Shown in pieces: positions 29,449 through 53,197 of a stretch of 64,000 nucleotides of DNA. Source of the DNA: Escherichia coli (GTDB taxonomy: Bacteria > Pseudomonadota > Gammaproteobacteria > Enterobacterales > Enterobacteriaceae); the NCBI RefSeq assembly GCF_048403405.1, contig NZ_CP183129.1. One strand, written 5' to 3'. Under the pieces are notes generated by a model. The model ran no database searches. It was given only the letters and a program-made list of their open reading frames with translations, and was not told where the DNA came from. Every line of letters starts with the position of its first letter. Within the stretch, counting starts at the first letter, position 1. The position numbers and the translations under genes were made by a program.

Positions 29449-31622
<2,174 letters not shown>

Positions 31623-31720
31623 TACGTATCCTTATACCTGAAATCTTCGCAAGTATGCCTGGCCGCGAGATTATGGCACACTTGTCCGGTTAACTCTCGT
31701 CTCATACAGGTAACACAAAC

Positions 31721-31765
31721 GTGAAAATCCTTGTTGATGAAAAAAATGATGACTTAATTTATTGA
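31721..31765 (+). pseudogene. pdxB: Probable 5' remnant of pdxB (first ~7 codons, then a stop)
   Basis: GTG AAA ATC CTT GTT GAT GAA reads VKILVDE, resembling the PdxB N-terminus MKILVDENMPYA recalled from K-12, then diverges into AT-rich sequence and stops after 14 codons. Confidence 0.4.
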
Positions 31766-31819
31766 TGTAAAAGGATTTATGTCAGCGCGTGTCCACGCAG
31801 TGACCACATTTTCGAGTTA

Positions 31820-31861
31820 CAGATAACACAAAGCCCGTTTTCACGGGCTTTGTGTTATCTG
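31820..31861. other. Perfect 18-bp-stem hairpin just inside the element junction
   Basis: CAGATAACACAAAGCCCG-tttt ca-CGGGCTTTGTGTTATCTG, exact reverse-complement arms; lies 30 nt downstream of the stop of the 31891-32784 gene. Confidence 0.8.
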
Positions 31862-31890
31862 TGATTGTGGCTAAGCCACATGATTTAATA

Positions 31891-32784
31891 CTATTTCCAG
31901 TTACAAGCAGCTTGAAGCGGTTTTAGCGCGTTTGACAGGCCGTTTAAATTGAAAGTTGCACTTACGGGGCTCTCATTATAAGGCGTTATTTTTGTATACA
32001 TTTTGCTTGAGTTGGCTAGTTTTCGGATGAAATCAATGTCATTACCTTTATAAAAAACAGCCTTTGTATCTGTAGATACTAGCCAGTTTCGCTCAACTGC
32101 TTTCTGTTTATCAAGGCGATAAAGCATGCTGGTTTGTTCAAGGCCTAAATATACATCCCAACTAAGAAATACTTCGGTTTTCTTTTCTCGGCAAGCTATA
32201 AAAAGAGTAGGAGTAACCGCTTCTCCAAATGGAGTTCTGATATAATCATCACTTTCTAACGATAAAATTACATTTTTCGAATCATCAATTGGCGATGTAG
32301 TAATGGATGTGTGCCATTTTCCTACATCTGTGGCTTTCTCTAATTTTGATTCAGCTTGAGCGATTTTATCCTGTGGGAATAGTTTATCGTAGCAGTTTAG
32401 TCTGGCTTCTTTATCATTTTCTGCACGACATTTAGATATCTCAGAAAGATTTGGTTGCTGAGCCTCTGTTGTTACTGGCTTTTCCGTTTTAGATTTTGAG
32501 TTTACAGATGGAGTAAATGTTGGAGAAAAGAAACGATCATAACAAGATAAACGTCTATCATCATCTTTCTCATCAGGGCATTGATCTCTGCTTTCGAATT
32601 TTTCAGCAACTTTCGTTCGAGTCGGTTGTATTGACTTATCGTAACAAGAAAGTCTGTCTTTATTATTTTCTATTGCTCGGCACTGGAGTACTGCATTGAA
32701 GTTCTTATGTTCAGTTGCTGCTTGAACAGGCAGTACACTAATTGATATAAATGATGCACCTATAGAAAAAATTATATTTTTCAT
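31891..32784 (-). CDS. AT-rich secreted protein with three Cys-Tyr-Asp repeat motifs, unknown function
   Basis: 297-aa ORF with signal peptide (MKNIIFSIGASFISISVLPVQA) and three repeats RLSCYDK / RLSCYDR / RLNCYDK; visibly AT-rich. Confidence 0.7.
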   Translation of the reverse strand: MKNIIFSIGASFISISVLPVQAATEHKNFNAVLQCRAIENNKDRLSCYDKSIQPTRTKVAEKFESRDQCPDEKDDDRRLSCYDRFFSPTFTPSVNSKSKTEKPVTTEAQQPNLSEISKCRAENDKEARLNCYDKLFPQDKIAQAESKLEKATDVGKWHTSITTSPIDDSKNVILSLESDDYIRTPFGEAVTPTLFIACREKKTEVFLSWDVYLGLEQTSMLYRLDKQKAVERNWLVSTDTKAVFYKGNDIDFIRKLANSSKMYTKITPYNESPVSATFNLNGLSNALKPLQAACNWK

Positions 32785-32788
32785 TTTA

Positions 32789-33121
32789 TTATCCCTTTGG
32801 TTTAGTAAGAAATACTAAAATTCCGATAATGATATCGCCAATAACCCATAAGCTTCCAATGGTAATTAAACCTAAGCCTGTACCAATAACTGCACCGGCT
32901 TTTTCGGCATCGGATGTGGCATTATTTATTATTTCACTAGTGCCTCCTAGTCCAACTAAAAGCGTATAGATCATAAAAATATTAAATAATATAAAAACCC
33001 ACTTAATGATCCGTCCAAAAAATGAACGCTTAAGTTTTTGCAGTTGTTTACCACAAGCAGGGCAATACAATGCTGAATCGCTCACCTCTTTCTGGCATTC
33101 AGGACATTTGATTAATGCCAT
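32789..33121 (-). CDS. Zinc-ribbon membrane protein, unknown function
   Basis: 110-aa ORF with N-terminal CPEC-x12-CPAC zinc ribbon and two hydrophobic helices; 4 nt upstream of the repeat-protein gene, forming an operon. Confidence 0.65.
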   Translation of the reverse strand: MALIKCPECQKEVSDSALYCPACGKQLQKLKRSFFGRIIKWVFILFNIFMIYTLLVGLGGTSEIINNATSDAEKAGAVIGTGLGLITIGSLWVIGDIIIGILVFLTKPKG

Positions 33122-33383
33122 GTAATCCGCCTCCTTTGGATTAATACGAGTTGATATTTGTTACAAAACATTTTGATTTTATCAGATTTATTTTTATTGA
33201 TAAGTGTCAATTGATTAGCTGGTATAGAGTGAGGCATATAGAAGGGCTGGTCTGTATCAGTATGTGATGCAAAAATCCCACAGTTTCATGGAATTTTTGC
33301 ATTTAGAGCTGTGAGATAGGGTGCCTTATCGACCTTACCCTGGCAACCGATTGACGGGGGATTACTCCCCCGTCGCGGTTTCC

Positions 33384-33524
33384 TTACTGCTTACACTGTA
33401 AGAACGCCGCAAACTCCGCTCCCCAGAAGCTCATCCGTATTTCACACAGCGAACCGTGCAGCATCCAGATGATGAGGATTACCGTCACGCAGAACGTGAT
33501 GGCCGTAAGCGATTTTTGCGACAT
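33384..33524 (-). CDS. Hok/Gef-family type I toxin-like small membrane protein
   Basis: 46-aa ORF MSQKSLTAITFCVTVILIIWMLHGSLCEIRMSFWGAEFAAFLQCKQ with AAGGAG 7 nt upstream; carries the Hok signature SLCEIR-6 residues-E-x-AAF after a TM helix. Confidence 0.6.
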   Translation of the reverse strand: MSQKSLTAITFCVTVILIIWMLHGSLCEIRMSFWGAEFAAFLQCKQ

Positions 33525-33714
33525 AGCGCTTGCTCCTTTTTCGGGGAGGCGCTAACCTATCACTTGCTTAGGGTAGACGGTTAGGGCCTCGGTTAAACAA
33601 AAGTGTTTTCCGGGGCCTTTCCACATCCGGCCATCGGGTATTCCCTCCGACCATCAGCCGAAAGGCACCCGCGCGTAATCTATCGCTTTTTTGTTACTCC
33701 GGCAATTCTGCCTG

Positions 33715-33975
33715 TTAATTCTGAGGTAAAGGCAAACTCATCTGATTGTTTCCCCTGTGTGAAGCTGGCAGCTCATGCCACGGGATACCTTCTGAAGAGT
33801 GAACGCCGGAGGCGTGTTTTGATGTGAATTTATGGAAGGCTTCCAGTGTTGAGAAGCATACGCCGCATTCCAGATTGTTACACTGGTAATACTTTTGCCG
33901 CACGGTGTTTGAATCATTTTCCGGACGACTGGTGCGGATACGGGCAGATGCGCCACAAAGCGGACAACGGAACAT
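33715..33975 (-). CDS. ogr: Ogr/Delta-family zinc-finger late transcription activator
   Basis: N-terminus MFRCPLCGASARIRTSR with a second Cys pair (CNNLECGVC), as in P2 Ogr. Confidence 0.85.
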   Translation of the reverse strand: MFRCPLCGASARIRTSRPENDSNTVRQKYYQCNNLECGVCFSTLEAFHKFTSKHASGVHSSEGIPWHELPASHRGNNQMSLPLPQN

Positions 33976-34017
33976 AGCGACCTCCCTTAACGTGGTGCTG
34001 CCGCTATTCTAAGTTGC

Positions 34018-35127
34018 TCACTCTGTTTCCGCTATCCATTCCGGGATTTTTGCCTCAAGCTCAAGCTGCGTGGTAAAGCCGCTGTTATCAATAGTGTGCT
34101 CGGCTTTTGCAATGATCCAGTCCTGATTATCAATCTCGCTTTTAAATCCTGTTACCGTACCATGCATTTCGGGGTAGAGTTCTGCACGTCCACGCGCCAG
34201 CGTGATGGAGAATGATGCGGCTCCGCGTTGTAGTTGCTGCCACTTTGCCGCCGCTGCGCGTCTTGCTGCCTGTTCGTTCTGATAGGTCTTGCGTAACACA
34301 AACACATTGCCTTCCGCGCCTTCCATATAATCACCTTCACGGCTGCTGCTTTTCTCCTTTTGGGGTTTTGGTGGTTTGCGGCGTTTCACGCTGACTTTTT
34401 TCTTTTCCCCGTAATTAAGATCAAGCCAGTAGGCGCGTACCCCCGTATACGCCTCGCGGTCAGCAATACGGAACTGATGGCGATCGCCGCTGCTGCGTGT
34501 AATGGCGAACGAGGGCAACGGCTGGCCCTGTGCGTTCACGCCACCACCTGGCATGATGAATAACAGATTGCCGCTTTTTACCGTGGTGATTGCGCCCAGC
34601 ATTTCCGCCATGCGCGTAAGGAAGGACATGTCGCTTTCTTCGGTCTGGTCGGCGTGGTCGATTTCGATATCCATCAGCATTTCGCTGATTTGTGGTTTCA
34701 GACCATACCGATGAGCGATGGCGGATACCACACGCTCAACGGTCACATCATGCCAGGACACCTCACGTTTAACGTTAAATTCATCCCGAAAATCTGCGCT
34801 TCTGGCTGAAACAGTCAGCCTGTCCGGCGGTCCTTCGTGAGCGATTTCATCAACAATGTAAGTGCCTTTTTCTGTCAGCGGTTCTCCTTTCCAGCCAATG
34901 AGAACCGTCAGGCGCGCGCCCCGTGGCGGTAGCTGCAACTGACCATCCGCATCATCCAGCGTGATGGTGAGCTGGTCCGCCTCAAATCCCCGGTTGTCGG
35001 TCAGTGACAGGCTCATCAGGCGCTCTGCCACGCCTGACAGCGTTTTACCCTCCGCGAGAATATCAAAATCCGGCATTTTCACGGGGTCTGTGCCCTGACT
35101 GAGCAATTGCATGGTGGTGTCGGTCAT
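34018..35127 (-). CDS. D: Phage tail protein D (late control gene D family)
   Basis: ATG at 35127 preceded by GGGAGGGAA; about 370 aa, gpD-like; the track ORF is extended 44 codons upstream. Confidence 0.8.
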   Translation of the reverse strand: MTDTTMQLLSQGTDPVKMPDFDILAEGKTLSGVAERLMSLSLTDNRGFEADQLTITLDDADGQLQLPPRGARLTVLIGWKGEPLTEKGTYIVDEIAHEGPPDRLTVSARSADFRDEFNVKREVSWHDVTVERVVSAIAHRYGLKPQISEMLMDIEIDHADQTEESDMSFLTRMAEMLGAITTVKSGNLLFIMPGGGVNAQGQPLPSFAITRSSGDRHQFRIADREAYTGVRAYWLDLNYGEKKKVSVKRRKPPKPQKEKSSSREGDYMEGAEGNVFVLRKTYQNEQAARRAAAAKWQQLQRGAASFSITLARGRAELYPEMHGTVTGFKSEIDNQDWIIAKAEHTIDNSGFTTQLELEAKIPEWIAETE

Positions 35128-35284
35128 CTGTTCCCTCCCTGTGCGGCATGGTCGCATGTGCGTGCGGAGGGGGTTACTGCTTTTTGTTGTCGCCGGGTCG
35201 GGAGAACGGCGCAGGGGTGAGATTACGCGCGTGGTGGGTGATGATTGTTGCCGAATCATTTAACGGATACAAGGGGCTGAAGCT

Positions 35285-36469
35285 ATGAGTGAAACTCGTT
35301 TTCATGGTGCCCGTGTTACGGAAAATACCGACCTGGTAACAGCGATTAACGATGTTGATTCCAGCGTTATCGGTATCGTGGCAACGGCGGATGATGCGGA
35401 CGCGAAGCTGTTCCCGCTGAATAAGCCCACACTGCTGACCCGCGTCAATGACGTGCTGGGAAAATGCGGGACAACGGGGACGCTTTATCGTGCGCTTAAG
35501 GCCATCGCAGACCAGGTGAGCACAAAGGTGATCGTCGTTCGCGTGGCTGAACACAAAGAAGAAGACGGAAAGACGCAGGATCAACTGGTTATCGGTGGTT
35601 CTGAGGATGACGGCAGCTATACGGGGATGTATGCGCTGCTTGTTGCAGAGCAGGATGAAAGCATCGGATACCGTCCGCGTATTCTGGCCGCGCCGGAGCT
35701 GGACACGGAGGCTGTAACAAAATCCCTGTGCGTGATTGCAGGTAAACTGCGCGCGTTTGTGTATGCCTCATGTCACGGCTGTAACACGATGGCTGAGGCG
35801 ATTACCTACCGCCAGAAATTCAACGAACGTGAGGTGATGCTCTTATGGCCGGACTTCATCGCCTACAACCCGAAAAGTGGCAAAAACGAAACGTTCCCCG
35901 CGCCTGCCTATGCGTGCGGCCTTCGTGCGTACATTGACCATGAGCAGGGCTGGCACAAATCGCTGTCCAACGTTCCGGTTAAAAATGTGCTGGGAATGTC
36001 CAGGCATGTGTTCTGGTCGTTGCAGGCCGAAGACAGCGATGCCAACAGCCTCAACAACAAAGAAATCACGACCATTATTCGTCGCAACGGGTTCCGCTTC
36101 TGGGGCAACCGCACACCGGAAACGAACGCCTACATCTTTGAGGTGTATACCCGAACCGCACAGGTGCTGGCTGATTCAATTGCGGAAGCGCAGTTTGAAA
36201 CCATCGACAGTCCACTGACACCTGCGAACGTGAAGGATGTTATCAGCGCCATCAGGGCAAAACTGGATTCGCTGGTTACTGCCGGGAAACTGATTGGTGT
36301 GGAGTGCTGGTATGACGTGGTGGATAACGGCACCACGAATTTACGTCAGGGACGTGTGCGTATTCGCTACAAATATACGCCTGTTCCCCCGCTGGAAGAC
36401 ATGGAGCTTTACCAGACGTTTACTGATGAATTCTTTGGTCCCGCATTTGCGGTGCTGGGAGGTGCCTGA
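35285..36469 (+). CDS. FI: Contractile tail sheath protein FI
   Basis: 394-aa product of P2 FI size; followed by tube, E/E', tape measure and U in P2 order. Confidence 0.85.
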   Translation: MSETRFHGARVTENTDLVTAINDVDSSVIGIVATADDADAKLFPLNKPTLLTRVNDVLGKCGTTGTLYRALKAIADQVSTKVIVVRVAEHKEEDGKTQDQLVIGGSEDDGSYTGMYALLVAEQDESIGYRPRILAAPELDTEAVTKSLCVIAGKLRAFVYASCHGCNTMAEAITYRQKFNEREVMLLWPDFIAYNPKSGKNETFPAPAYACGLRAYIDHEQGWHKSLSNVPVKNVLGMSRHVFWSLQAEDSDANSLNNKEITTIIRRNGFRFWGNRTPETNAYIFEVYTRTAQVLADSIAEAQFETIDSPLTPANVKDVISAIRAKLDSLVTAGKLIGVECWYDVVDNGTTNLRQGRVRIRYKYTPVPPLEDMELYQTFTDEFFGPAFAVLGGA

Positions 36470-36981
36470 TGGCTGTACCAAAACATCTTCGCTTTTTTAC
36501 GTTGTTTGTGGATGGTGAAAACGAAGTGGGTAAAGTGACATCCGTCACGCCGCCCAAACTGACGCGCAAAACCGACAGCTATCGTGGTGGTGGCATGATG
36601 GGGGCGGTAAGTATTGATCTCGGTCTGGACGACTCCGCGCTTGATGCGAGTTTTGTCATGGGGGGAGCTGTTCGTGCGCTGTTCCTTAAATATGGCGGCA
36701 CGATTGACGGCACGCTGCTGCGTTTTGCGGGTGAATACTACACCGATGCAGAAAGCGATCTGTATGAAATCGAGATGCGCGGGCGTGTGACGGAAATTGA
36801 TATGGGGGAAGCCAAACAGGGCGAAGCCACATCACACACTTACGCTGTCAAAAACACCTACTACAAGCTGAGCGTTAACGATCGCCCGCTGTGGGAAATC
36901 GACCTGTTGAACCACATCTACCGGAAGGACGGCAAGGACATTGTGCCTGACCGTATCCGTTCCGCGCTTGGGCTTGGCTGA
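36469..36981 (+). CDS. FII: Tail tube protein FII
   Basis: 170-aa product; start overlaps the FI stop (TGATG). Confidence 0.85.
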   Translation: MAVPKHLRFFTLFVDGENEVGKVTSVTPPKLTRKTDSYRGGGMMGAVSIDLGLDDSALDASFVMGGAVRALFLKYGGTIDGTLLRFAGEYYTDAESDLYEIEMRGRVTEIDMGEAKQGEATSHTYAVKNTYYKLSVNDRPLWEIDLLNHIYRKDGKDIVPDRIRSALGLG

Positions 36982-37036
36982 TAAGTAATATGCAGGCGGC
37001 GCAGTGCGTCGCCTCTGACTGAAAAGGAGACAACTG

Positions 37037-37411
37037 ATGAAAGACATCGATACTGAAACCCGGAATAACACCGTGGCGGATGATGTGACGGCAGGTGAGG
37101 ATATGGCTGTCGAACGTGGCGTAAAACTGACCCGACCAATTGAGCGTGGTGGCGAAAAAATCACGTATGTGGAGATCACCGGGGCTATTGAGCAGGCTGG
37201 ATCCCTGCGTGGTCTGTCGCTGTCTGATGTGCTGAATCTGAAAGCGGATACCATGTTTACGCTGTTGCCTCGCGTGACCTCGCCACGACTGGATGAAGTG
37301 ATGATTAAAAAAATGTCGTCACGCGATTTTATTCAGTTGTGCGCTGTGGCTGTAAATTTTATGAGCGAGCCAGACTCTGGCGCGAAGAGCGTGCAGGAGA
37401 CGGCAGCGTAA
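37037..37411 (+). CDS. E: Tail assembly chaperone E
   Basis: 124-aa ORF with AAAGGAG upstream; an overlapping -1 frame ORF follows, the E/E' arrangement of P2-type tail chaperones. Confidence 0.75.
   Translation: MKDIDTETRNNTVADDVTAGEDMAVERGVKLTRPIERGGEKITYVEITGAIEQAGSLRGLSLSDVLNLKADTMFTLLPRVTSPRLDEVMIKKMSSRDFIQLCAVAVNFMSEPDSGAKSVQETAA
37307..37313 (+). promoter_or_regulatory. Candidate -1 programmed frameshift site (A7 run) for E+E'
   Basis: AAA AAA A in the E frame. The -1 frame has a TAA at 37306-37308 and is open from 37309 to 37575, so slippage on Lys codons would fuse E (to ...VMIKK) to the E' extension. Confidence 0.5.
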
Positions 37412-37575
37412 TCACCCTGGTGTGCTTTGAGCACATCGAAGATCTGGTGGCGGATATTGCCGCCATTTTTAACTGGTCGCCCGCCGAAATCTTCATGATG
37501 ACGCCCGGCGAAGTGGTTAGCTGGCGCGAGCGGGCGGCACTTCGCAGCGGGAATGCAGATAATGAAGACTCTTGA
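37309..37575 (+). CDS. E' extension (-1 frame) of the tail chaperone, expressed only by frameshifting
   Basis: Open -1 frame with no own start or RBS context; ends at a TGA overlapping the start of T. Confidence 0.55.
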   Translation, partial: KNVVTRFYSVVRCGCKFYERARLWREERAGDGSVITLVCFEHIEDLVADIAAIFNWSPAEIFMMTPGEVVSWRERAALRSGNADNEDS

Positions 37576-40369
37576 TATCCGGGTCGCTTTCAGCGCCGTT
37601 GACAGGCTGACCCGGCCTGCCGAAAACGCCCGCCGCCTGATGGGGCAGTTTGGTGACTCCATCCAGCGAACGCAGGGGGCGATCAAAAATCTCGAGCGTC
37701 AGGCGCGTTCATTTGAGCGCGCCCGTGACGCTGTCAGTAAAGCGGATGCTGGCATCGTGAAAGCACGACGCCAGCTTAACGCCCTTAATCAGTTACAACG
37801 CACGGGTACAGTGCTCAGCGAAAAACAACAAAAGCTGATGCAGCAGTTAAGCACCCGGCTTGAACGCCTGAATGAATCGCGCACACGGGAAATTCAGAAA
37901 ATGCGGGAGCTTGGCGGAGAGCTGAAACGCCACGGCATTTCCCTGACAGGCAGCGATAACACCATCCAGCAGGCCATCAGACGCACCGAACAGTACAACA
38001 ACCAGCTTGAACGCGAACGGCAGGCGCTTGCGCGTGTAACGCGGGCGCGTGAGCGGTATTCGCGCGCGCAGGAAACAGCGGGAAAACTGAAAACAGGTGG
38101 TGCGCTGGCAATTGGTGCGGCAGCGGCGGGCGGCTATGCTGCCGGGCGTTTTTTGCAGCCTGCGATCGGGTTCGGCAAAGAGATGTCCCGCGTTCAGGCA
38201 CTGACGCGAATCGACCAGAACAGCCCGCAGTTTAAGGCGCTGCGTGAGCAGGCGTTAAAACTTGGCTCTGAAACGCAGTTCACCGCAGGCGATGCCGCCA
38301 GTGGACAGGCATTTCTTGCAATGGCTGGCTTCACTCCGCAGGCCATTCAGGCTGCGCTTCCCGGCGTGCTGAGCATGGCAACGGCTGGCGGTATGGATCT
38401 CGGCGAGACGGCAGATATTGGCTCAAATATCCTGACGCAGTTCGGCCTTTCTGCTGACCAGATGGACCGGGTCGGTGACACACTCACCGCAGCGTTTACC
38501 CGTACCAACACTGACCTTCGCGCACTGGGCGAAACCATGAAATATGCAGGTCCGGTGGCGGGTAAGCTGGGAATATCGCTGGAGCAGGCCGCAGCGATGG
38601 CTGGCGTGCTGGCGAATATGGGCATCAGAGGGAGTGATGCCGGGACGGCAATGCGTGCCAGCCTGGCTCGTCTGGCATCACCGCCAAAGGCGGCGGCAGA
38701 AGCTCTGAAAGAGCTGGGCGTGTCCGTCTCGGATGCCGGGGGCAAAATGCGCCCGATGGAGGATGTGCTGGCCGACCTTTATAAAGCCACCCGTAAATAC
38801 GGGGAAGTTGACCGGGTATCGTTCTTTAAGGACATTGCCGGAGAAGAGGCTTTCACATCGTTTATGGCGCTCGTTGATGCAGCGGGTGACGGTTCCTTAC
38901 CCAAACTGAGAAAAGAACTTGAAGGCGCGCGCGGTGAGGCTGAACGCACAGCAAAGGTTATGGCCAACAACCTTGACGGCGATCTGAAATCACTCGGCAG
39001 TGCATGGGAAGGGTTGCGCATCCGCATTGCAGATCTGATTGACGGTCCGCTGCGTTCTGTCACGCAGTGGCTCACGCGGGTGGTCTCAAAAGTGACGGCA
39101 CTGGCGCAGGCCCATCCGGCACTGACGCGCCAGTTACTGATAGCGGGAGGTGCACTGCTGGCGACAACAGCAACGGTTGGTTCGTTGTCTCTGGTTATTG
39201 GGGTGCTTCACGGGAAGCTGGCTACGTTACGTCTCGGTTTTTCTCTCCTGACCGGATCAATGAATGCTGTCAGGGGCCTGCCAGCACTATGGGGAATGGT
39301 GACGGGTTCCGTTTCTTTACTGGGAGGCGCTATCGGGGCGCTGATCAGTCCGGTTGGTCTTATCGTGGCTGCGCTTGCCGGAGCTGCCGTTCTTATCTGG
39401 AAATACTGGGATCCCATCAGGGCATTTTTTGCCGGGGTGTTCAGCGGGATTATGGAAAGGCTGACCCCGTTGCGCGAAACCTTTGAACGGTTTGGTCCTG
39501 TTTTTGACGCAATCGGAAGCGGGATCAGCCAGGTGTTTAACTGGTTTAAATCGCTGCTGTCACCGATGGAGTCCAGCAAGGAAACGCTGGATAAATGTAC
39601 CAGTGCTGGCGAGATATTCGGTAACGTTCTTGGCGGTGCGTTACAGCTTGTTCTGACACCTGCAAAAATGCTACTGGATACGCTGGCGTGGATACTTGAA
39701 AAACTTGGCGTCCTTCCGGATGAAGCGGAAAAGGCGCGCAAGAAAATCGAAGACGCACAGCGTGCGGCCATTCTTCAGGACAAGGTTGCCTTGCTTCAGG
39801 GGGACCTTGCGAAAATCAATCCGCCGAAGCCTGTGGAAAATGGCAATGGCACCGGAGGTGATAAACCCAAAGACAACAAACCGCTCACAGACAGCAATAC
39901 CGGGACGCTACGCAGACTCAGCAAAATTGCTGATAACACAGGTAAGCTGGTTGATGAGACGAAAAAACGCATTGGCCCTGGCGATATTGTCTTTAAGAAC
40001 CTGCCCCGCGCACTTGCTGTTCGTGGGGAGTGGCAGGAGCGGAAGATTGCGCAGGTCAGTAAGCCTGCCCCCGCAATTAATATCACACCCGTAGTCCCGG
40101 CTCCGCTGCCTCCGGCGCTGGTCCCTGTTGTTGCGGCCAGCTCCCGCCCGGTGGCGGAGGCCATACGATCGCCAGTGGCATCAGTTCCTGCAGCTTCCCG
40201 TAATCGGGAGCCTGCTGTCTCCAGATTTGGCGGTGAAATTCATGTTCATCTGCATAACGTTGTTACGCAGAATCCCCGCGAACTGGCGAAACTGGTCGGT
40301 GAAATGGTCAGGGCAGAGATGGAACGGCGCGCCCGTGCCGGACGTGGCAGTTTTTACGATAAAGATTGA
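37553..40369 (+). CDS. T: Tail tape measure protein T
   Basis: 938-aa product with coiled-coil N-terminal half and Gly/Ala-rich hydrophobic central segments; the start could instead be the ATG at 37562. Confidence 0.85.
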   Translation: MQIMKTLDIRVAFSAVDRLTRPAENARRLMGQFGDSIQRTQGAIKNLERQARSFERARDAVSKADAGIVKARRQLNALNQLQRTGTVLSEKQQKLMQQLSTRLERLNESRTREIQKMRELGGELKRHGISLTGSDNTIQQAIRRTEQYNNQLERERQALARVTRARERYSRAQETAGKLKTGGALAIGAAAAGGYAAGRFLQPAIGFGKEMSRVQALTRIDQNSPQFKALREQALKLGSETQFTAGDAASGQAFLAMAGFTPQAIQAALPGVLSMATAGGMDLGETADIGSNILTQFGLSADQMDRVGDTLTAAFTRTNTDLRALGETMKYAGPVAGKLGISLEQAAAMAGVLANMGIRGSDAGTAMRASLARLASPPKAAAEALKELGVSVSDAGGKMRPMEDVLADLYKATRKYGEVDRVSFFKDIAGEEAFTSFMALVDAAGDGSLPKLRKELEGARGEAERTAKVMANNLDGDLKSLGSAWEGLRIRIADLIDGPLRSVTQWLTRVVSKVTALAQAHPALTRQLLIAGGALLATTATVGSLSLVIGVLHGKLATLRLGFSLLTGSMNAVRGLPALWGMVTGSVSLLGGAIGALISPVGLIVAALAGAAVLIWKYWDPIRAFFAGVFSGIMERLTPLRETFERFGPVFDAIGSGISQVFNWFKSLLSPMESSKETLDKCTSAGEIFGNVLGGALQLVLTPAKMLLDTLAWILEKLGVLPDEAEKARKKIEDAQRAAILQDKVALLQGDLAKINPPKPVENGNGTGGDKPKDNKPLTDSNTGTLRRLSKIADNTGKLVDETKKRIGPGDIVFKNLPRALAVRGEWQERKIAQVSKPAPAINITPVVPAPLPPALVPVVAASSRPVAEAIRSPVASVPAASRNREPAVSRFGGEIHVHLHNVVTQNPRELAKLVGEMVRAEMERRARAGRGSFYDKD

Positions 40370-40375
40370 GGAGTC

Positions 40376-40870
40376 ATGGTCATGATGATGATCTACGGCA
40401 TGTTTGTTTTTGAGCTGCGCACACTGCCGCATCAGCAGTTACAGCAAAACAAAAGCTGGCGGCATGTGAAAAATGAACGCGTTAACCGTTCAGCAAGCTG
40501 GCAGTATATAGGTGCAGGTGATGATCGCATTGTGCTTTCCGGCGTGCTTTATCCTGAAATTACAGGTGGCGAAGTGTCGCTTTCGTTGCTGACCACGCAG
40601 GCATATACAGGACGCCCCTGGCCTCTGATTGATGGTGTCGGGCAGATTTACGGCATGTATGTGCTGACTGAAACGAATACGACCCGTTCCGAGTTTGATC
40701 GCTACGGTAAGGCGAAAAAGATAGAATTTTCACTGACCCTTGAACGCTGTGATGAGGATTTGCGGGAGCGCCTGCAATCCTCATCATTCAGCGATATGCT
40801 GTCCGGCTTCAAAGATAAGGTGACATCATCTCTTAACAGCGCGGCCAGTTCAGTTAAAGGGCTGTTCTGA
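40376..40870 (+). CDS. U: Tail protein U
   Basis: 164-aa product (MVMMMIYGMFVFELRTLPHQQLQ...), gpU-like. Confidence 0.8.
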   Translation: MVMMMIYGMFVFELRTLPHQQLQQNKSWRHVKNERVNRSASWQYIGAGDDRIVLSGVLYPEITGGEVSLSLLTTQAYTGRPWPLIDGVGQIYGMYVLTETNTTRSEFDRYGKAKKIEFSLTLERCDEDLRERLQSSSFSDMLSGFKDKVTSSLNSAASSVKGLF

Positions 40871-40883
40871 TTTAACACAAAAA

Positions 40884-40916
40884 CCGCTAATGGTCAGATT
40901 AGCGGTTATTTTGTTT
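40884..40916. terminator. Terminator hairpin between convergent U and invertase genes
   Basis: CCGCTAAT-ggtcag-ATTAGCGG followed by TTATTTTGTTT on the plus strand, with a T-run also on the minus-strand side; overlaps the invertase stop. Confidence 0.65.
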
Positions 40917-41493
40917 CCTGACTCTTCTCTATTGTTCCGATTGATTCTCCTGCGGGGTGGTAACGATAAATCGTCGATATACCAATGCCGTAAATTATTG
41001 CCAGTTGTTTTCTGTCGTGCCCGTTTTTGATCAGCCTTGCTATTTGCTCATGCTGTTCTTTTGTCAGCTTCGGTCGACGTCCGCCTGTGCGCCCCCGTGC
41101 GCGTGCTGCCGCCAGTCCGGCCAGTGTACGTTCAACAATTAATTCACGTTCCATTTCAGCCAGGGCACCCATCACGTGGAAGAAAAAACGCCCCATTGGA
41201 GAAGATGTATCTATGCTGTCGGTCAGACTGCGAAAATTAATTCCTCGCTCCCGTAGTTCCCCGACGAGAGAAATCAGATGTTTCATGCTTCGCCCGAGGC
41301 GATCCAGTTTCCAGACAACCAGCGTGTCACCTTTTTGAAGGCGCTTTAAAGCGCGTTTTAATCCCGGTCGGTCTGTCTTTGTCCCGCTTAATTTATCTTC
41401 AAATATTTGTTCACATCCTGCACAAACAAGAGCGTTTCGTTGCAGGTCTGTATTCTGGTCATTTGTTGATACCCTTACATAGCCAATCAGCAC
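40906..41493 (-). CDS. pin: Serine DNA invertase (Hin/Gin/Cin/Pin family)
   Basis: GTG at 41493 gives MLIGYVRVSTNDQNTDLQRNAL... with the catalytic Ser in GYVRVST and a C-terminal HTH; the track ORF starts at TTG 41511. Confidence 0.9.
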   Translation of the reverse strand: MLIGYVRVSTNDQNTDLQRNALVCAGCEQIFEDKLSGTKTDRPGLKRALKRLQKGDTLVVWKLDRLGRSMKHLISLVGELRERGINFRSLTDSIDTSSPMGRFFFHVMGALAEMERELIVERTLAGLAAARARGRTGGRRPKLTKEQHEQIARLIKNGHDRKQLAIIYGIGISTIYRYHPAGESIGTIEKSQETK

Positions 41494-41547
41494 GCTGAAT
41501 CTCCCGTCCAAAAGCGCAAATCATGCCATGCAGGCCGGAAACGGCCA

Positions 41548-41575
41548 TTATCTAAAACCTCGGTTTACAGGAAAC
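41548..41575. other. gix/pix-type recombination site (left)
   Basis: TTATCTAAAACCTCGGTTTACAGGAAAC, differing at one base (position 6, T vs C) from the Mu gix sequence TTATCCAAAACCTCGGTTTACAGGAAAC as I recall it. Confidence 0.75.
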
Positions 41576-42581
41576 GGTAAACAAGGCTGGTAACGCCGTC
41601 CAAAAGACAGGCGATATCTTGTCCGGTGGGCTTACTTTTGAAAACGACTCAATCCTTGCCTGGATTCGGAATACTGACTGGGCAAAGATTGGTTTTAAAA
41701 ATGATGCCGACAGCGATACTGATTCATACATGTGGTTTGAAACAGGCGACAACGGCAATGAATATTTCAAATGGAGAAGCAAACAAAGCACCACAACAAA
41801 AGACCTGATGAATCTTAAATGGGATGCTTTGTCTGTTCTTGTTAAAGCCCTTTTCAGCAGTGAAGTAAAAATATCGACAGTCAATGCACTGAGGATATTT
41901 AATTCATCTTTTGGTGCTATTTTTCGCCGTTCTGAAGAATGCCTGCATATCATCCCGACACGAGAGAATGAGGGAGAAAATGGTGATATAGGGCCACTAC
42001 GCCCCTTTACGCTTAATCTCAGAACTGGTCGGATAAGCATGGGGCATGGTCTTGATGTTACAGGGGATATATTTGCAAACCGTTTTGCAATTAACAGTAG
42101 TACCGGCATGTGGATTCATATGCGTGACCAGAATGTTATTTTGGGACGCAATGCGGTATCCACCGATGGTGCACAGGCATTACTTCGTCAGGACCATGCT
42201 GATCGCAAATTTATGATTGGTGGGCTGGGAAATAAGCAATTTGGCATCTACATGATTAATAACTCAAGGACAGCTAATGGCACCGATGGTCAGGCGTACA
42301 TGGATAATAACGGGAACTGGCTTTGCGGTTCGCAAGTTATTCCCGGCAACTATGGCAATTTTGATTCCAGATATGTGAAAGATGTTCGACTTGGTTCACA
42401 GCAATATTATGGAGTGAACAACTGGCAAACATGGAATTTCCAGTGCCCGTCAGGTCATGTATTGTCTGGTATTAATGTTCAGGATACAGGGTCCAACTCT
42501 GCCGATAATATAGCGGGCGTTTATTACAGACCCGTTCAAAAGTATATAAATGGCACCTGGTATAATATAGCGAGCGTTTAA
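41576..42581 (+). CDS. Alternative tail-fiber C-terminal segment (Sv'-like), silent in this orientation
   Basis: Frame continues in phase through the left site ([14 protein letters not shown]...) and has a TAA inside the site, so there is no own start; ends [12 protein letters not shown] like the active fiber end. Confidence 0.7.
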
Positions 42582-42582
42582 T

Positions 42583-43110
42583 ATGATGCACTTAAAGAAC
42601 ATAAAAGCGGGTAATGCTAAAACACTGGAACAGTATGAGTTAACAAAGAAGCACGGAGTCATCTGGCTTTACTCTGAGGACGAAAAAAACTGGTATGAGG
42701 AAGTGAAAAACTTTCAGCCAGACACCATAAAGATTGTTTACGATGCAAATAATATTATTGTCGCCATCACTAAAGATGCCTCCACGCTTAACCCTGAAGG
42801 TTTTAGCGTCGTTGAGGTTCCAGATATTACAGCCAACCGCCGCGCTGATGATTCAGGAAAGTGGATGTTTAAGGATGGAGCTGTAGTTAAACGGATTTAT
42901 ACGGCAGACGAACAGCAACAACAGGCCGAATCACAAAAGGCCGCATTGCTTTCCGAAGCTGAATCAGTCATCCAGCCGCTGGAACGCGCTGTCAGGCTGA
43001 ATATGGCAACAGACGAGGAACGCACACGACTGGAAGCATGGGAACGCTACAGTGTTCTGGTCAGCCGTGTGGATACGGCAAATCCTGAATGGCCACAAAA
43101 GCCTGAATAA
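42583..43110 (+). CDS. Tail fiber assembly protein, alternative copy
   Basis: 175-aa product [23 protein letters not shown]..., paralogous to the 43139-43672 gene. Confidence 0.8.
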
Positions 43111-43115
43111 AAATT

Positions 43116-43135
43116 AAGGCCCGCTATCGGGCCTT
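43116..43135. terminator. Hairpin between the convergent tail fiber assembly genes
   Basis: AAGGCCCG-ctat-CGGGCCTT. Confidence 0.5.
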
Positions 43136-43138
43136 GTC

Positions 43139-43672
43139 TCATTCAGGTTGTTCGGGAAATGTTACTGGCAGGCTGGAGGTGTCTGTAGATTCGACTTTCT
43201 GCGCATAGAGCATCCACTCGGTTAATTTTGGTTTATTCTCGTCGGAAATGATGCCCAGCCGTAGCTGTGAGTCCCATAGCTGGGTTTTATCCCTGACAAG
43301 TTGCAACAGGCTTTGCTTTTCATTTTCCGCCTGCTGCCTCTGCTCTTCCTCGGTATAAGTTCGCTTTACCACTACGCCATCTTTGAACATCCATTTACCC
43401 GAAATGTCAGCACGGCGATTTGCTGTAATATCAGGTAATTCAACGACGCTTGCGCCTTCCGGATTAATTGCTGAAACATCCTTTTCAATACAAATAATAA
43501 CGCCGTTATGGTCATAGACCATTTTTAAAGTGTCTGGCTGGAAATTCTTTTGTTCCTCATACCAGTTTTTTCCATCCTCTGAATAAAGCCATTTGATGTT
43601 AAATTGTTTCGTTAGCTGGTATTGCTCTTTTGTTTTAGGGTTGCCAGCAGTAATGTTTTTTAAGTGCATCAT
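43139..43672 (-). CDS. Tail fiber assembly protein (G-like), active orientation
   Basis: 177-aa product [23 protein letters not shown]..., immediately downstream of the fiber gene. Confidence 0.85.
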
Positions 43673-43674
43673 CG

Positions 43675-45777
43675 TTAAATACTCCCCGCGTTATACCACG
43701 TCCCATTAATGCAATACTGAATTGGCCTTGCCTGAGTTGTATCAATTAATTCATCACGGTTTCCGTTAACTGAACCCGTAACGACATAACCTGACCTGTC
43801 AGACCAGCCGGGACCATTCCATGTCTGAACAGATGACAGACCGCCAAGGCGAATACCTGTAATAAACCTTGAGTTACATTCTGCCTGCGTGTATGCACCA
43901 ACATCTCCCGCTGAGGGTTTGCGGGTCGTGGTGTAAAACTCTGACCAGTCAGCTTCAAAGCCATAACCATCACGCGCTGAACGATAAAAAATGCCGCCGT
44001 TCCTGTAATTCACGCGGAACTGTACAGCAGGGCAACTCCCCGCATTCATATTGAAATGAAGAATTAACGTTGATGCGCCGGTGATTCTGGCGCAATAAAC
44101 TCCGCTGTTCCAGTTCCAGCCAACAGCTTTATCATTTCCGACAGTGCTTCCTGTTTGCCCTAAAGCAAATGCAGGTTGTTGATTTTTCGTGTTGTAGTCT
44201 CGTCGCCAGCCAGGAGCGTAAGCATCACCATGATTGATATAAGTGAATTGAGCGTTAGTAATTCCGCCACCGCTGGACGTGCTCGGCGTGGTAACGCGTA
44301 TGGTCATTGCGCCGCGAGTGCCAATAACTTCCACCACAGCACCTGCAAGACAAATATTTCCGCAACCTGTATCTGTAATGACCTTATTATTTGCATAAGC
44401 CCATGAGCCTTTGCACATCCAGTAAGGATGGTTAAATGCTCCCTGACTCTCCAGCCACGAAATAAATTGCGCGGTTGTCCAGACCTGACTATCGCCACCA
44501 ATATTCAGCCATGCGCTATATGCGCGGCAGGCACCAATATTTTTGGTGAAGGTATCTTTTCCTGGAATATCTGCGCCGTTCTGGTTTTTCTGTAATGCGC
44601 CAGAAGCCTGATTTACCGTTTCCTGTAAACCGAGGTATTCGATAACGGCAGCAACGGTCGATTTCGCAAGAATATCCCGCCCGACTTTTGTCAGGGTTGC
44701 CAGGCTGGCGACATCATTCCCCGTAAAATACGGAAACCTGTCTGCCGCAGTAGCAAGCCCGGCCAGCGCCGTCAGGGTGGCATCTTTCGGTTGCTTACCC
44801 GCAAGCGCTTTAGTCATGGTGGTCGCAAAATTCGGGTCGTTTCCCAGCGCCGCCGCTAACTCGTTCAACGTATTCAGTGCGTCAGGCGACGAGTCTACAA
44901 GTGCGGCAATCGCGGCCATCACATAAGCCGTGCTTGCGATCTGAGTATTATTAGTCCCTTTTGGCGCAGTTGGCGTTGTTGGCGTTCCGGTCAGTGCAGG
45001 ACTATTTAAGGGCGCTTTCTTGTTCGTTTCATCCATTACCGCCTTAACCGCTTTTGGCGTCGCAGCCAGCGTTTCAGATGTGCTGTTGGTGGCGCTACTG
45101 AGCTGAACTATCCCTTTTCGCGCAGTGGTAGCGTCCTGTGCGGTGTATTTGCCATTAGCCAGGTCATATGCCGCCTTAACAGCCTTTGGCGTTGCCGCAA
45201 GCGTTTCAGACGTGCTGTTAGTGGCGCTGCTAAGTTGAACAAAGCCTTTTGCGGTCAGCGAGGCGTCCGGGTGACGTCGTGAGTGTTCATGCTCTTTCAG
45301 TTTGTCATCCACGTAATCCACTGTGGCCATCACCATGGTGTTATCCACGGTAAGCGCCACGGTGGCAGTGCTGGATACGGTCAGAATGGTGCGAAATGTT
45401 TGTGCACGTCCTGACCCTTCGGCAACGGCTGGCTTGTAACTTTCGGCAGTATTGCCTACTGCGATTAAATCGCCGTGCTCATCAAACACACCAATTTCCC
45501 GGATCCAGAATCCGCCCGTTTCTGGAGGAATAACCAGCTCCGCAATAATGCGGTTCTGATGTGTTGCGTCCAGTATGACGCGATTAACAGTGTGTCGCCA
45601 CACCTCATGCACCAGACGGGTCTGCTTACTGTCTGGTGTGGGCAACGTGCCGCCACCGTCGCCCACGGCCATATGAGTCAGGCGGACAGGCTTACCATCT
45701 GGCGCGGCTGCCTGAGCTAATTTTTTTGCACCCGTATCGGTGATAACGGTTTTAAATTTTCGTGTTGTGGTACTCAT
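43675..45777 (-). CDS. H: Tail fiber protein H, with its C-terminal ~320 codons inside the invertible segment
   Basis: 700-aa ORF; reading frame passes through the right recombination site at residues [11 protein letters not shown]. Confidence 0.85.
44618..44645. other. gix/pix-type recombination site (right), inside the tail fiber gene
   Basis: GTTTCCTGTAAACCGAGGTATTCGATAA, the reverse complement of the left site with two mismatches. Confidence 0.75.
45041..45268. repeat. Tandem direct repeat (two copies of ~96 bp, 132-bp period) inside the tail fiber gene
   Basis: Encodes [23 protein letters not shown] twice, 44 aa apart. Confidence 0.8.
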
Positions 45778-45779
45778 GC

Positions 45780-46310
45780 TTAATCGTCCGGATAAATGGT
45801 AATGACTTCACCGTCGTAAGTTGCTGCCGCCGCGAAAATATCTCCCGGGATCTCCTGAATGATATTCAGCCCTGTCATGTGGCGGCTGACCGGGCGGGCA
45901 TCAGCAATCAACCGCTCCATTTCCAGATACATTTCCTCCGTCACGCCACTGTCCAGCGTGCCGACTTCAACGGTAAATGTTCCCGGTTCTCCGCCGAACT
46001 CCCACCACTCAGACACGCGAATGAGGTATCCCAGCGGCTCAATGGCCCGGCGCAGTGCGCTGATGGTCCCTTTGTGTCGGTGTATCAGCCATGCATCACG
46101 AATCACCTGTCGCTTTGTCTCTTCCGGCCAGTTGCGATCCCAGCGGTCAACGGAAAATGCCCAGGCGAGATAAGGCAGCAAATGCACCGGGCAGGTGTCC
46201 GGTGACCACAGCGTGTTGAGGTCTACCGGGATGTCTGTAATGCGCGCTCCGACAGCTTCGGCGCAACGCATGAAACGGCTGGCTGATGGCGGTAACAGTG
46301 AATTACTCAT
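45780..46310 (-). CDS. I: Baseplate/tail protein I
   Basis: Start at 46310 gives 176 aa, P2 gpI size; overlaps the J stop. Confidence 0.75.
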   Translation of the reverse strand: MSNSLLPPSASRFMRCAEAVGARITDIPVDLNTLWSPDTCPVHLLPYLAWAFSVDRWDRNWPEETKRQVIRDAWLIHRHKGTISALRRAIEPLGYLIRVSEWWEFGGEPGTFTVEVGTLDSGVTEEMYLEMERLIADARPVSRHMTGLNIIQEIPGDIFAAAATYDGEVITIYPDD

Positions 46311-47199
46311 TGCGCCCACCTTCGCTGATGGTGAATGACTCACAGCGCGCCGCCTGTATGTCGCTGATGGCCAGATTCTGTGTGGGTTCGATTATCTCCA
46401 CGCGTTGCACACCGTGCACATGCAGTGCGGCAGCAATGGCGGACAACGCCACGTCCTGACCGATAAGCCCCTGCTCAGCCAGCCACTTCCTGAACGACGA
46501 TTCAGCCGCCGCCAGAATAGGTTCGGATTCCGGACCGGGGTAAAAGTACAGTTTTGCATTCAGCCGCCATGTCACGATTCTGGCGCTCTGTACGGTCAGG
46601 CGGTCGGCCACCGGGCGGGTATCCTCTGCATTCAGAACGGCGCGAACGGTATTAAGCAACGCCTCCGTTGCTGTGCCGTCGCCTTCAGTGGACAGGATGG
46701 AAACCGTCACATTTGCCGGAGACGGACTGATAGCCCGCGCATCACGCACCAGACCGCTGGCGCTGCGGGCAAAATACTCGTATGCACCTGACGGGCCAGC
46801 AACACTCAGGCCGTCGTACGCCCGCTGCGCCCGCAGTCTCAGCGAGGTGTCGCTCTCCATCACCGCGTCGGTGGTATCCGTTGCCGGAGTGATAACCAGG
46901 CGCTTTGTGTTCATATTGCCCGCGAGGTTGTCCAGGTCTGTCCCGGCGCTGTGGCTTAACATGCAGGCGCGTGCCCCCTCGTTAACCCGCTGGCGTAACA
47001 GCATTTCACGAAACGACATGGTTTGAGCGATAACGTTCAGGGGTTCCGATTCCAGCTCCAGCGCGGCGGAAACGGCTTCACGCTGTTCGGCGGGATAGGA
47101 CGCAATCATCATGGCTTTTGTGTCAGCCAGAATTGCTTCAAAGTCAGGCTCCGCGATGATGGCGGGTTCCGGTAACTGGGAAAGGTCAACGGCGGGCAT
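46303..47199 (-). CDS. J: Baseplate assembly protein J
   Basis: 298-aa product in P2 J position and size. Confidence 0.8.
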   Translation of the reverse strand: MPAVDLSQLPEPAIIAEPDFEAILADTKAMMIASYPAEQREAVSAALELESEPLNVIAQTMSFREMLLRQRVNEGARACMLSHSAGTDLDNLAGNMNTKRLVITPATDTTDAVMESDTSLRLRAQRAYDGLSVAGPSGAYEYFARSASGLVRDARAISPSPANVTVSILSTEGDGTATEALLNTVRAVLNAEDTRPVADRLTVQSARIVTWRLNAKLYFYPGPESEPILAAAESSFRKWLAEQGLIGQDVALSAIAAALHVHGVQRVEIIEPTQNLAISDIQAARCESFTISEGGRNE

Positions 47200-47202
47200 G
47201 AT

Positions 47203-47553
47203 TTACTCCCTCAGCGTGATGGTTAACTCAATATTCTGCATGGTCTGCATGACAGTGCCCGACAGCGTCACCCCGGCGCGGCCTCCCGCTTTCCAGACAA
47301 CGTCGATGGCATCCAGGGCAATGCGGGGTTCCCATCGTGTCAGCGCAATCACGGCAGCACTCATGCATTGCAGACGCGTGGTGTTATTCATGGGTTCGTC
47401 AATCAAATCAGGCACAAGGCTGCCATATTCCCGTCGCATAACCCGGCTGGCCAGCGGGGTGGTCAGGATGTCCCTGACTGACTGTTTCAGGTGCTCCATA
47501 TCGTTCAGGTTTCCCGTTCCGTCCGGGTTCATTCCTGTGTAGCGGGTTGTCAC
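47203..47553 (-). CDS. W: Baseplate wedge protein W (gp25-like)
   Basis: 116-aa product in P2 W position and size. Confidence 0.8.
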   Translation of the reverse strand: MTTRYTGMNPDGTGNLNDMEHLKQSVRDILTTPLASRVMRREYGSLVPDLIDEPMNNTTRLQCMSAAVIALTRWEPRIALDAIDVVWKAGGRAGVTLSGTVMQTMQNIELTITLRE

Positions 47554-50477: not shown

Positions 50478-50479
50478 TG

Positions 50480-51183: not shown

Positions 51184-51275
51184 TCCTGAAAAAATCGGGC
51201 GGTGGGTGCGCGGTGTAAACGGTCACGGAGTCAAACCGGAACACCGCGCACGCCGCCCGCTGACGGGGTCAGTCG

Positions 51276-52076: not shown

Positions 52077-52121
52077 TTGTTCTCTCCGTTACTGGCGGGC
52101 ATGATGCCCGCCGTGAGTTGA

Positions 52122-53174: not shown

Positions 53175-53197
53175 AAAAAATTTGCTCCTTTGTCTTA

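Follow-up and report, generated by a model that had tools for sequence, protein, structure and literature searches.

A PhiSM/P88-type P2-family prophage at the published pdxB site of Escherichia coli, with a probable bidirectional intrinsic terminator beside its attachment arm

The flk-pdxB junction and the inserted prophage

The stretch of Escherichia coli DNA considered here, 64,000 nucleotides in full and hereafter called the window, carries the host gene flk and, divergent from it, the beginning of pdxB, which after a few codons gives way to a prophage that continues past the window end (Table 1). The two genes are annotated as divergent neighbors in K-12 MG1655. When aligned to the corresponding region of that genome (NC_000913.3, 2436000-2440000), the window is identical through position 31743 (...GATGAAAA), 23 bases into pdxB, and unrelated from 31744, the third base of codon 8, which places the break in codon 8 of the gene. 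The remnant open reading frame (ORF) comprises the GTG with the first 7 codons of the host gene and 7 codons of phage DNA, followed by TGA. A first-pass annotation, made from the sequence alone, had taken this short ORF for the start of PdxB, divergent from flk, had let the element begin a few codons into the gene near 31742, and had remarked on AT-rich DNA followed by a stop after about 7 codons. The K-12 alignment agrees with this description: pdxB adjoins flk, the short ORF is the genuine pdxB start, the true divergence lies at most 2 bases from the proposed position, and the GC content is 0.37 in the 75-base arm after the junction and 0.36 in the following 1.3 kb of cargo, as against 0.52 in flk. 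The native upstream signals of pdxB, which to judge from the gene arrangement should include a promoter, are orphaned from their gene in this lysogen.

Table 1. Features of the flk-pdxB junction and the adjoining end of the prophage (window coordinates)
Feature	Position	Strand	Basis
flk, host gene divergent from pdxB	30627..31622	-	331-aa ORF; annotated flk in identical genomes and K-12
flk-pdxB intergenic region, native pdxB upstream signals	31623..31720	+	identical to K-12
Remnant pdxB start and phage DNA, VKILVDEKNDDLIY, then stop	31721..31765	+	GTG at 31721; alignment and translation
att core copy, AAAATCCTTGTTGATGAAAA, 20 bp including the published 17-bp ATCCTTGTTGATGAAAA	31724..31743		K-12 attB, lysogen far junctions, attP
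P2-family prophage body, continues past window end	31744..64000		colinear with L001 and L003
IHF-like site CATCAATAAATTA	31755..31767	-	12/13 positions of WATCAANNNNTTR; weak, inferred
Two P2-type Int arm-binding repeats (P arm), GTGGACAC and GTGGTCAC, 11 bp apart	31789..31807	-	consensus match
Perfect 20-bp stem with 4-nt loop, probable bidirectional rho-independent terminator at arm/cargo boundary	31819..31862		repeat finder, folding, covariation, P2 position
Cargo gene 1, 297-aa VasI/TagO-like protein	31891..32784	-	GC 0.36; TIGR03360 75.9 bits, below cutoff 124.2
Cargo gene 2, 110-aa zinc-ribbon membrane protein	32789..33121	-	110-aa ORF
Hok/Gef-family toxin ORF	33384..33524	-	phrog_251 at 2.5e-23
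ogr-type late-gene activator	33715..33975	-	phrog_603; ogr/Delta-like in identical genomes
P2 gpD-type tail gene	34018..35259	-	phrog_52 at 1e-166, aligned from residue 43

With its right-hand end inside the window, the inserted element belongs to the PhiSM/P88 type of P2-family prophages (Peduoviridae). A minus-strand block of cargo, hok, ogr, and gpD-type genes is followed by the tail sheath gene on the plus strand (PHROG hits to ogr, gpD, and tail sheath), and the true start of the gpD-type gene is probably some 40 codons inside its ORF. A sok-like RNA match at 33511-33670 falls short of the Rfam threshold, and a PADLOC search with the two cargo proteins gave no match. A P2-type late gene set is present, according to PHROG matches in the window and the full P2-type gene lists of colinear lysogens. 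Whole-element annotation was read in two genomes with which the window is colinear, L001 (CP027219) and L003 (CP053723). Both contain a complete P2-type prophage of ~36-38 kb in the order cargo, hok, ogr, D, tail, lysis, head, terminase, portal, replication gene A, cox, C repressor, and integrase, with pdxB, usg, and truA directly after the integrase; the integrase, an HTH regulator, and a Cox-family protein adjoin pdxB in both, and int lies beyond the window. The slot between the attachment arm and hok holds exchangeable cargo modules, each opening at the arm with a hairpin of its own.

The window aligns with L001 and L003 at 94-98% identity except in mosaic stretches around the tail-fiber region and near the portal end, and among the lysogens from which the far junction was read, prophage identity to the window is 94-100%. 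Compared with L003, the sole large unaligned stretch of the window is 40876-45041, which lies past tail gene U and overlaps the tail-fiber genes. Seven genomes are 100% identical to the window at both 31400-32100 and 58000-64000, with a difference of 1214 bp in between. Beyond E. coli lysogens, the arm and cargo are 98.7% identical to Citrobacter phage Shae_phiSM, and identity to the lysogen integrase is 92-99.5% for the enzymes of Chuche, P88_4B11, PhiR44_2, and Shae_phiSM.

The attachment core is shared by the window junction, the empty attB of K-12, the far junctions of lysogens L001, L003, and L060, and the attP of phage Chuche, all of which carry the same 20 bp; the attP of P88_4B11 is the same as that of Chuche except for a one-base variant in the core. 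In the attP of both free phages the two arms are joined across the core, and K-12 is continuous across it, representing the precise empty site. For PhiSM, Magaziner et al. 2019 reported an attP/attB in E. coli K-12 consisting of the 17-bp ATCCTTGTTGATGAAAA, situated 6 bp inside pdxB, with the integration site in MG1655 mapped by random-primed PCR (PMC6456863). Here the window junction is called attR, following P2 usage (the ogr and cargo end), whereas the published figure legend assigns attR to the view showing the TTG-pdxB fusion (PMC6456863). The pdxB side is matched from exactly the first core base in 5425 of 5426 complete E. coli genomes, and in 302 of the 5426 (~5.6%, ~1 in 18) the phage arm is joined to pdxB. 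A 701-base junction query was 99.9-100% identical to the best 30 E. coli genomes listed, and the same junction with the same cargo was found in 224 genomes (at least 80% of the 701-base query covered).

The attachment arm and the adjoining hairpin

From the core inward, the arm in the window consists of an IHF-like site and two tgTGGaCa-type Int arm repeats, which are followed at once by a strong stem-loop. The sequence tgTGGaCa is the Int arm-site consensus of P2-type phages (PMC3448106), and in the lysogens a matching repeat pair, GTGTCCACGCAGTGTCCAC, lies on the int-side arm, within the 3' end of int. The IHF-like site is reported as weak because a search for the exact IHF consensus gave no match at the window junction, the agreement being 12/13 only; in most other variants the site reads TATCAATAAATTA, a 13/13 match to WATCAANNNNTTR. 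Its position between the core and the arm repeats is that of the IHF site in the P2 record (NC_001895). In that record, a feature described as "rho-independent terminator for ogr transcript and F operon" follows ogr and lies 4 bp from the Int P arm, after which come the Int P arm itself, IHF, the attP core, the Cox sites, and the P' arm overlapping the end of int. The window arm is homologous to the P2 sequence annotated as Int P arm (e.g., TAAAAGGATTTAT...GTCCAC.CA.TGACCACAT), and the hairpin starts 9 bases after ...TGACCACAT in P2 and 11 bases after it in the window. As the two arms are homologous and a hairpin stands at the same spot in both, the window hairpin is the positional equivalent of the P2 terminator.

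The two arms of the hairpin (31819-31838 and 31843-31862, 20 nt each) are 100% complementary and lie 4 nt apart, forming a perfect inverted repeat longer than any other in the 64-kb window, where it is single-copy; it begins 75 bp in from the junction and core and 11 nt past the last Int arm repeat. RNA folding yielded -38.7 kcal/mol for the plus strand and -35.4 kcal/mol for the minus strand (z -11.2 and -9.8, respectively, versus dinucleotide shuffles), and the top of the stem is GC-rich (GCCCG/CGGGC). The 18-bp stem with a 6-nt loop that had been noted initially is real, but it represents the core (31820-31837/31844-31861) of this longer 20-bp stem. An Rfam scan of 31400-34100 at a permissive threshold returned for the palindrome only generic hairpin matches of 22-26 bits, against thresholds of 47-98. 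A REP-like repeated mobile element was considered and ruled out, because the hairpin occurs once in the window and accompanies a single type of cargo.

The neighborhood of the arm was surveyed in IMG/VR, where 53 stretches carry the conserved arm end TGACCACATTTTCGAG, ~43 of them representing this phage arm. What follows the arm end is of at least four unrelated kinds, and in each a distinct GC-rich stem with a T run comes first: the window type (CAGATAACACAAAGCCCG...), the Chuche type (AAGCCCGCAACATTGCGGGCTT TGTCTT), which stands beside Com/methyltransferase cargo, the L027 type (AAAGCCCGTAAAATATGCGGGCTTT), in which the adjacent gene points away from att, and the L053 type (AAAAAGCCCGCAG...CTGCGGGCTTT). 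The window-type hairpin is present in every lysogen with this cargo, and its six distinct sequences contain no broken pair (100% of 108 cells paired). In the P88_4B11 variant three pairs have changed on both sides and all are restored (A-U to G-C, C-G to A-U, and A-U to C-G), and two further variants carry a change on one side that leads to G-U. None of 500 shuffles reached the observed percentage paired, the number of pairs changed on both sides, or the covariation score, and none of six slid registers had a pair changed on both sides. The three compensatory changes, however, trace to a single lineage and so may reflect few independent events.

These observations bear on whether the hairpin could be a part of the recombination apparatus, that is, a cruciform needed for integration or excision or a site bound by Int, IHF, or Cox, and not a signal for transcription. 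Such a role would be in keeping with its location, only 11 nt past the last Int repeat and 75 nt from the core, and with its constant association with this cargo in lysogens. However, the same core and arm repeats, together with integrases 92-99% identical, are found beside the unrelated hairpins of the Chuche, L027, and L053 types, and a recombination module that works with different hairpins argues against such a role. Furthermore, the protein-binding features in the P2 record end before the terminator, and within the window type the sequence varies while pairing is kept, which is the signature of a folded strand and not of a sequence-specific protein site. A recombination function thus appears very improbable. 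Where the first-pass annotation had suggested that the palindrome could be either att-associated or a terminator, the latter is favored; the hairpin adjoins att by position, yet the conserved att module does not include it.

The most likely function, as far as the sequence allows termination to be predicted, is that of a bidirectional intrinsic terminator. The VasI/TagO-like gene, read on the minus strand, stops 28 nt short of the hairpin. In Chuche and P88_4B11, convergent cargo and int genes flank the hairpin position at attP, and a transcript leaving int would meet it before any other terminator-like structure. A consensus terminator scan of the window did not call the hairpin at 31819-31862. 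A T run, TTTGTGTT, directly follows the GC-rich stem top on both strands, but it is interrupted and paired within the extended stem, and after the full 20-bp stem a T run is found on neither strand. Pairing of A-rich with U-rich flanks is expected for terminators that work both ways. The same scan calls the Chuche and P2 hairpins terminator-like, and their tails are similarly interrupted. Because the scan misses the window hairpin, the assignment relies on positional homology to P2, on the called terminators that stand in its place in sister phages, and on covariation.

The L027 type provides a further indication of direction. Since its cargo gene points away from att, the hairpin there cannot be that gene's own terminator, and its retention nonetheless suggests that a role on the plus strand matters. 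This case fits a bidirectional or int-side role and not one purely at the end of a cargo operon.

The far junction and the fate of pdxB

The integrase gene, the second junction, and the remade pdxB are all outside the window and were read from near-identical lysogens. The core AAAATCCTTGTTGATGAAAA occurs once in the 64-kb window and a second copy is absent from it, because the second junction, at which int meets pdxB, is expected from lysogen colinearity to lie ~4.6 kb beyond base 64000. The initial suggestion that the other junction lies beyond the window is borne out by this single occurrence and by the far copy in related lysogens, where the search for a direct repeat and an intact gene recovered both the 20-bp core and an in-frame pdxB.

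In L001, L003, and L060 the far junction has the order int, arm, AAGGAG-N7-TTG, core, and pdxB (in L001, ...TAATAAAGGAGCCTTAGATTGTCAGAGACTGAAAAAGGGTTAAAAATCCTTGTTGATGAAAATATGCCTTATGCC...), the TTG standing 7 nt after AAGGAG. Translation from this phage TTG gives MSETEK(G/W)L-KILVDENMPYA... and continues through pdxB with no stop, to yield a PdxB of 385 residues versus 378 in K-12; the phage leader is polymorphic, with Gly or Trp at residue 7. IMG/VR scans for the int-side junction returned only two contigs, one of which, L060, was read and provides the third lysogen junction. As most IMG/VR prophage predictions are trimmed at int, conservation of the leader is judged on these three lysogens and two phage records, in whose attP the leader is likewise in frame. 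Additionally, in each of the five lysogens for which annotation at the junction was inspected, pdxB retains an intact ORF. In the inspected lysogens, the NCBI PGAP pipeline calls a pdxB product of 370 aa that begins not at the TTG but at an internal ATG (native codon 8, Met8). The KILVDE segment, which the Met8 product lacks, aligns from the first residues of the PdxB structures 3OET, 5DT9, and 2O4C.

For PhiSM, the published account describes an in-frame TTG leading into pdxB with an AAGGAG Shine-Dalgarno sequence at -7, proposes a promoter just upstream of the TTG in lysogens, and reports that MG1655(PhiSM) lysogens grow on minimal medium, pdxB mutants being described as auxotrophs (PMC6456863). 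It could nevertheless be supposed that pdxB is lost or crippled in lysogens, the TTG being fortuitous and survival depending on the internal-ATG product, on bypass pathways, or on external vitamin B6; the PGAP call from Met8, the variable residue 7 of the leader, and the weakness of TTG as a start codon would be compatible with this. Against it stand the growth of PhiSM lysogens under conditions in which pdxB mutants would be auxotrophic, the intact ORF in all five lysogens inspected, the occupation of the site in 302 of 5426 genomes, and the in-frame AAGGAG-N7-TTG leader of three lysogens and two phage attP records; moreover, a start at Met8 would delete the conserved KILVDE that is present at the beginning of solved PdxB structures. 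Loss of pdxB function is therefore considered very unlikely, and we infer that the TTG is the start actually used. The first-pass annotation had allowed for pdxB being interrupted or reconstituted at the far junction. The in-frame fusion, taken with the published growth of PhiSM lysogens, which in effect already answers the question of pyridoxine auxotrophy (PMC6456863), favors reconstitution over mere interruption.

In the lysogen, a terminator scan of the interval from the int stop to pdxB found no terminator-like site, so that read-through from C-int could contribute to pdxB expression. This observation also bears on the possibility that the hairpin serves mainly as a retroregulator of int, similar to the lambda sib/tI element; it would end C-int transcripts and expose them to decay by RNase III or exonuclease until integration separates the two. 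Integration would then free the int mRNA and let transcripts from Pc continue into the fused pdxB. In the attP of Chuche and P88_4B11, the hairpin indeed lies downstream of int across the core as the first terminator-like structure there, comparison with the lysogen junctions shows that integration parts it from int, and cargo whose gene is oriented away from att nevertheless comes with a hairpin. The stem is also unusually long and perfect (20 bp, versus the 9-10 pairs counted by the scan in Chuche and P2). A perfect 20-bp duplex is compatible with RNase III-dependent decay of int mRNA, but it proves nothing in this regard. Other cargo types manage with ordinary short terminators, and a long duplex is accordingly not required by the int/att module. 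The published account has a dedicated promoter just upstream of the TTG instead (PMC6456863), and a search of the literature library for P2 and retroregulation found nothing. Retroregulation as the main function of the hairpin is thus judged unlikely.

Proposed scheme and relation to known systems

Overall, we are confident that the window contains a PhiSM/P88-type P2-family prophage at the published pdxB site and that the hairpin beside its arm is a probable bidirectional intrinsic terminator. In the scheme that we propose, the tyrosine integrase recombined attP with the 17-20-bp attB (AAAATCCTTGTTGATGAAAA), which starts at pdxB codon 2. The native pdxB start and its upstream signals are left at the end seen in the window, where they open only a 14-codon dead-end ORF. 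At the far end, ~36 kb away, the int-side arm supplies AAGGAG, a 7-nt spacer, and a TTG with seven further codons, and these eight phage codons read in frame into pdxB codon 2, so that the enzyme would have a short foreign N-terminus. The hairpin, acting as a bidirectional terminator, would on the minus strand end the cargo transcript of the VasI/TagO-like and zinc-ribbon genes. On the plus strand, it would in the lysogen keep transcripts from the orphaned pdxB promoter out of the prophage, which they would otherwise enter in antisense, and in the free phage it would halt C-int transcription once attP has been crossed.

A more far-reaching version of this scheme, which we offer as speculation and consider rather unlikely, is that integration rewires transcription at both prophage ends by means of this one hairpin. 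Before integration, C-int transcripts crossing attP would terminate at the hairpin, which might also be a target of RNase III like lambda sib. Integration would carry it ~36 kb away to the flk side, where it would shield the prophage from the host pdxB promoter stranded there, and at the other end the immunity-operon transcript from Pc would run into TTG-pdxB. If this were true, pdxB, an essential gene of vitamin B6 synthesis, would join the lysogeny operon. The significance of the locus is mainly one of correct annotation, as the automated annotation in the inspected lysogens misses the likely phage-supplied start of pdxB.

Integration at this place, the kind of phage involved, and pdxB rescue have all been published, and the finding is accordingly an ordinary one. 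PhiSM (Magaziner et al. 2019, J Bacteriol 201:e00638-18; PMC6456863) has the same att, ATCCTTGTTGATGAAAA, at the same place 6 bp into pdxB, and its AAGGAG and TTG are read into pdxB as in the lysogens described here. The published att and growth data for PhiSM, together with the 98.7% identity to Shae_phiSM, indicate that the main inference of the first-pass annotation was right. There are nonetheless several distinctions between the two. The PhiSM study concerns a laboratory K-12 lysogen, whereas the window derives from a natural E. coli lysogen whose prophage, a mosaic relative, shares 94-98% identity with other lysogens and has a different tail-fiber region. The shared core counted here in E. 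coli comprises 20 bases versus the 17 published for PhiSM, and neither the hairpin nor the arm repeats nor the cargo slot is mentioned in the PhiSM paper (PMC6456863).

P2 (NC_001895) shares with the window prophage the order of ogr side, terminator, Int P-arm repeats, IHF, core, and, as read in lysogens and phage records, an arm with the second pair of Int repeats inside the 3' end of int. However, its core, and hence its chromosomal target, is different, its terminator stem has 10 pairs instead of 20, and it lacks the cargo genes that the window prophage carries between ogr and the terminator. Unlike in P2, the FI-U tail gene block in the window lineage is inverted relative to D-ogr. The likeness to lambda sib/tI, a hairpin downstream of int on the far side of attP that is separated from it by integration, is positional only; the phage family and the integrase arm type differ from those of the window prophage. 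PhiNP and other P2-like phages at ssrA, as well as phage 186 at a tRNA gene, likewise integrate inside a gene and bring along the segment that is replaced, so that the function of the gene is kept. At pdxB, unlike at these sites, it is the 5' end of a protein-coding gene that is replaced, and what replaces it does not reproduce the host sequence but consists of a foreign ribosome-binding site, a TTG, and seven new codons, with the native promoter left behind at the other junction.

Attachment core and the start of pdxB in lysogens

The core reads GAGG rather than GATG in P88_4B11-type phages (attP: comparison stretch L004), and the phage G is present at the flk-side junction of P88_4B11-type lysogens (stretches L029, L033, and L051). 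On the evidence of these base differences, strand exchange must lie inside AAAATCCTTGTTGA, to the left of the base that corresponds to window base 31738. The core is separated from the IHF-like site by 10-12 bases (window 31744-31756; equivalents in stretches L008-L059) that are hypervariable in otherwise conserved arms, with the variants AAATGATGAC, AGATGTTGAT, AAACAAAGAT, TAATAGTGGT, and ATGAAAATTA. In most of these variants the short ORF at the junction stays open to the same TGA, and in one it meets an early stop.

In RefSeq, the lysogen pdxB product (WP_001543634.1) has 370 aa and starts at an internal ATG, native codon 8. In the E. coli lysogens L001 and L003, a phage TTG lies 45 nt upstream of this ATG, in frame with pdxB and with AAGGAG at -7. 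Initiation at this TTG would, as read from the sequence, yield a 385-aa PdxB in which the conserved N-terminal segment is retained.

The same phage arm is joined to a different flank in one IMG/VR contig (L012, 60-160: ...GGTTAAATCATTGTTGATGAAAA...). This flank differs both from the flk-pdxB sequence of E. coli and from the int arm of the phage; it may be a secondary attB, or the host may be a different species. In C. rodentium, the published site is located within a traF-like gene.

Cargo, probable toxin-antitoxin module, and inverted repeat

Among phages with the same integrase, at least four low-GC cargo modules occur as alternatives in the slot that separates the att arm from hok (see table below). 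The 169-aa ORF of stretch L053 looks like an IS200/IS605-type transposase, and a PADLOC search of the window's two cargo proteins returned no defence match. Beyond the slot, the Hok-family ORF is overlapped by the sok-like RNA, which scores 43 bits, below the Rfam gathering score of 59; together they probably constitute a prophage-borne hok/sok-type toxin-antitoxin module.

Coordinates and content of cargo, probable toxin-antitoxin, and pdxB features
Feature	Location	Content or evidence
Cargo slot	window 31863-33200	compared with L005, L027, L053
Cargo module	window	VasI/TagO-like + zinc-ribbon
Cargo module	Chuche (free phage)	Com + DNA methyltransferase
Cargo module	L027	246-aa zinc-ribbon membrane protein, oriented away from att
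Cargo module	L053	169-aa ORF
Hok-family ORF + sok-like RNA	window 33384-33670	phrog_251 2.5e-23; Rfam
RefSeq-annotated pdxB	L001 41534-42646; L003 39749-40861	outside window

A second long inverted repeat, imperfect and with 20-nt arms that are 85% complementary, occurs at window 1653-1698. It carries a ACACAAAGC...GCTTTGTGTTAT motif similar to that of the hairpin at 31819-31862 and sits between two ORFs that converge on it (plus-strand 73..1569 and minus-strand 1714..2907). It is probably another bidirectional terminator.

Mosaicism and orientation of the tail genes

Window 40876-45041 does not align to the otherwise 98%-identical L003 prophage, which has other tail-fibre genes and, after U, a gene for serine acetyltransferase. 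This mosaic region, of tail-fibre or cargo type, explains why the window differs by 1214 bp in length from genomes that are 100% identical at both ends of the prophage part.

D-ogr and the block of sheath, tube, E, tape-measure, and U genes are transcribed divergently (window 34018-41000; stretch L063, 1-8300), and some 25-155 bp separate the start of D from that of the block. Because the free phage Chuche has the same divergent arrangement, the layout is a feature of the lineage and not an assembly artefact. On the P2 map, the sheath, tube, E, tape-measure, and U genes share one operon with D.
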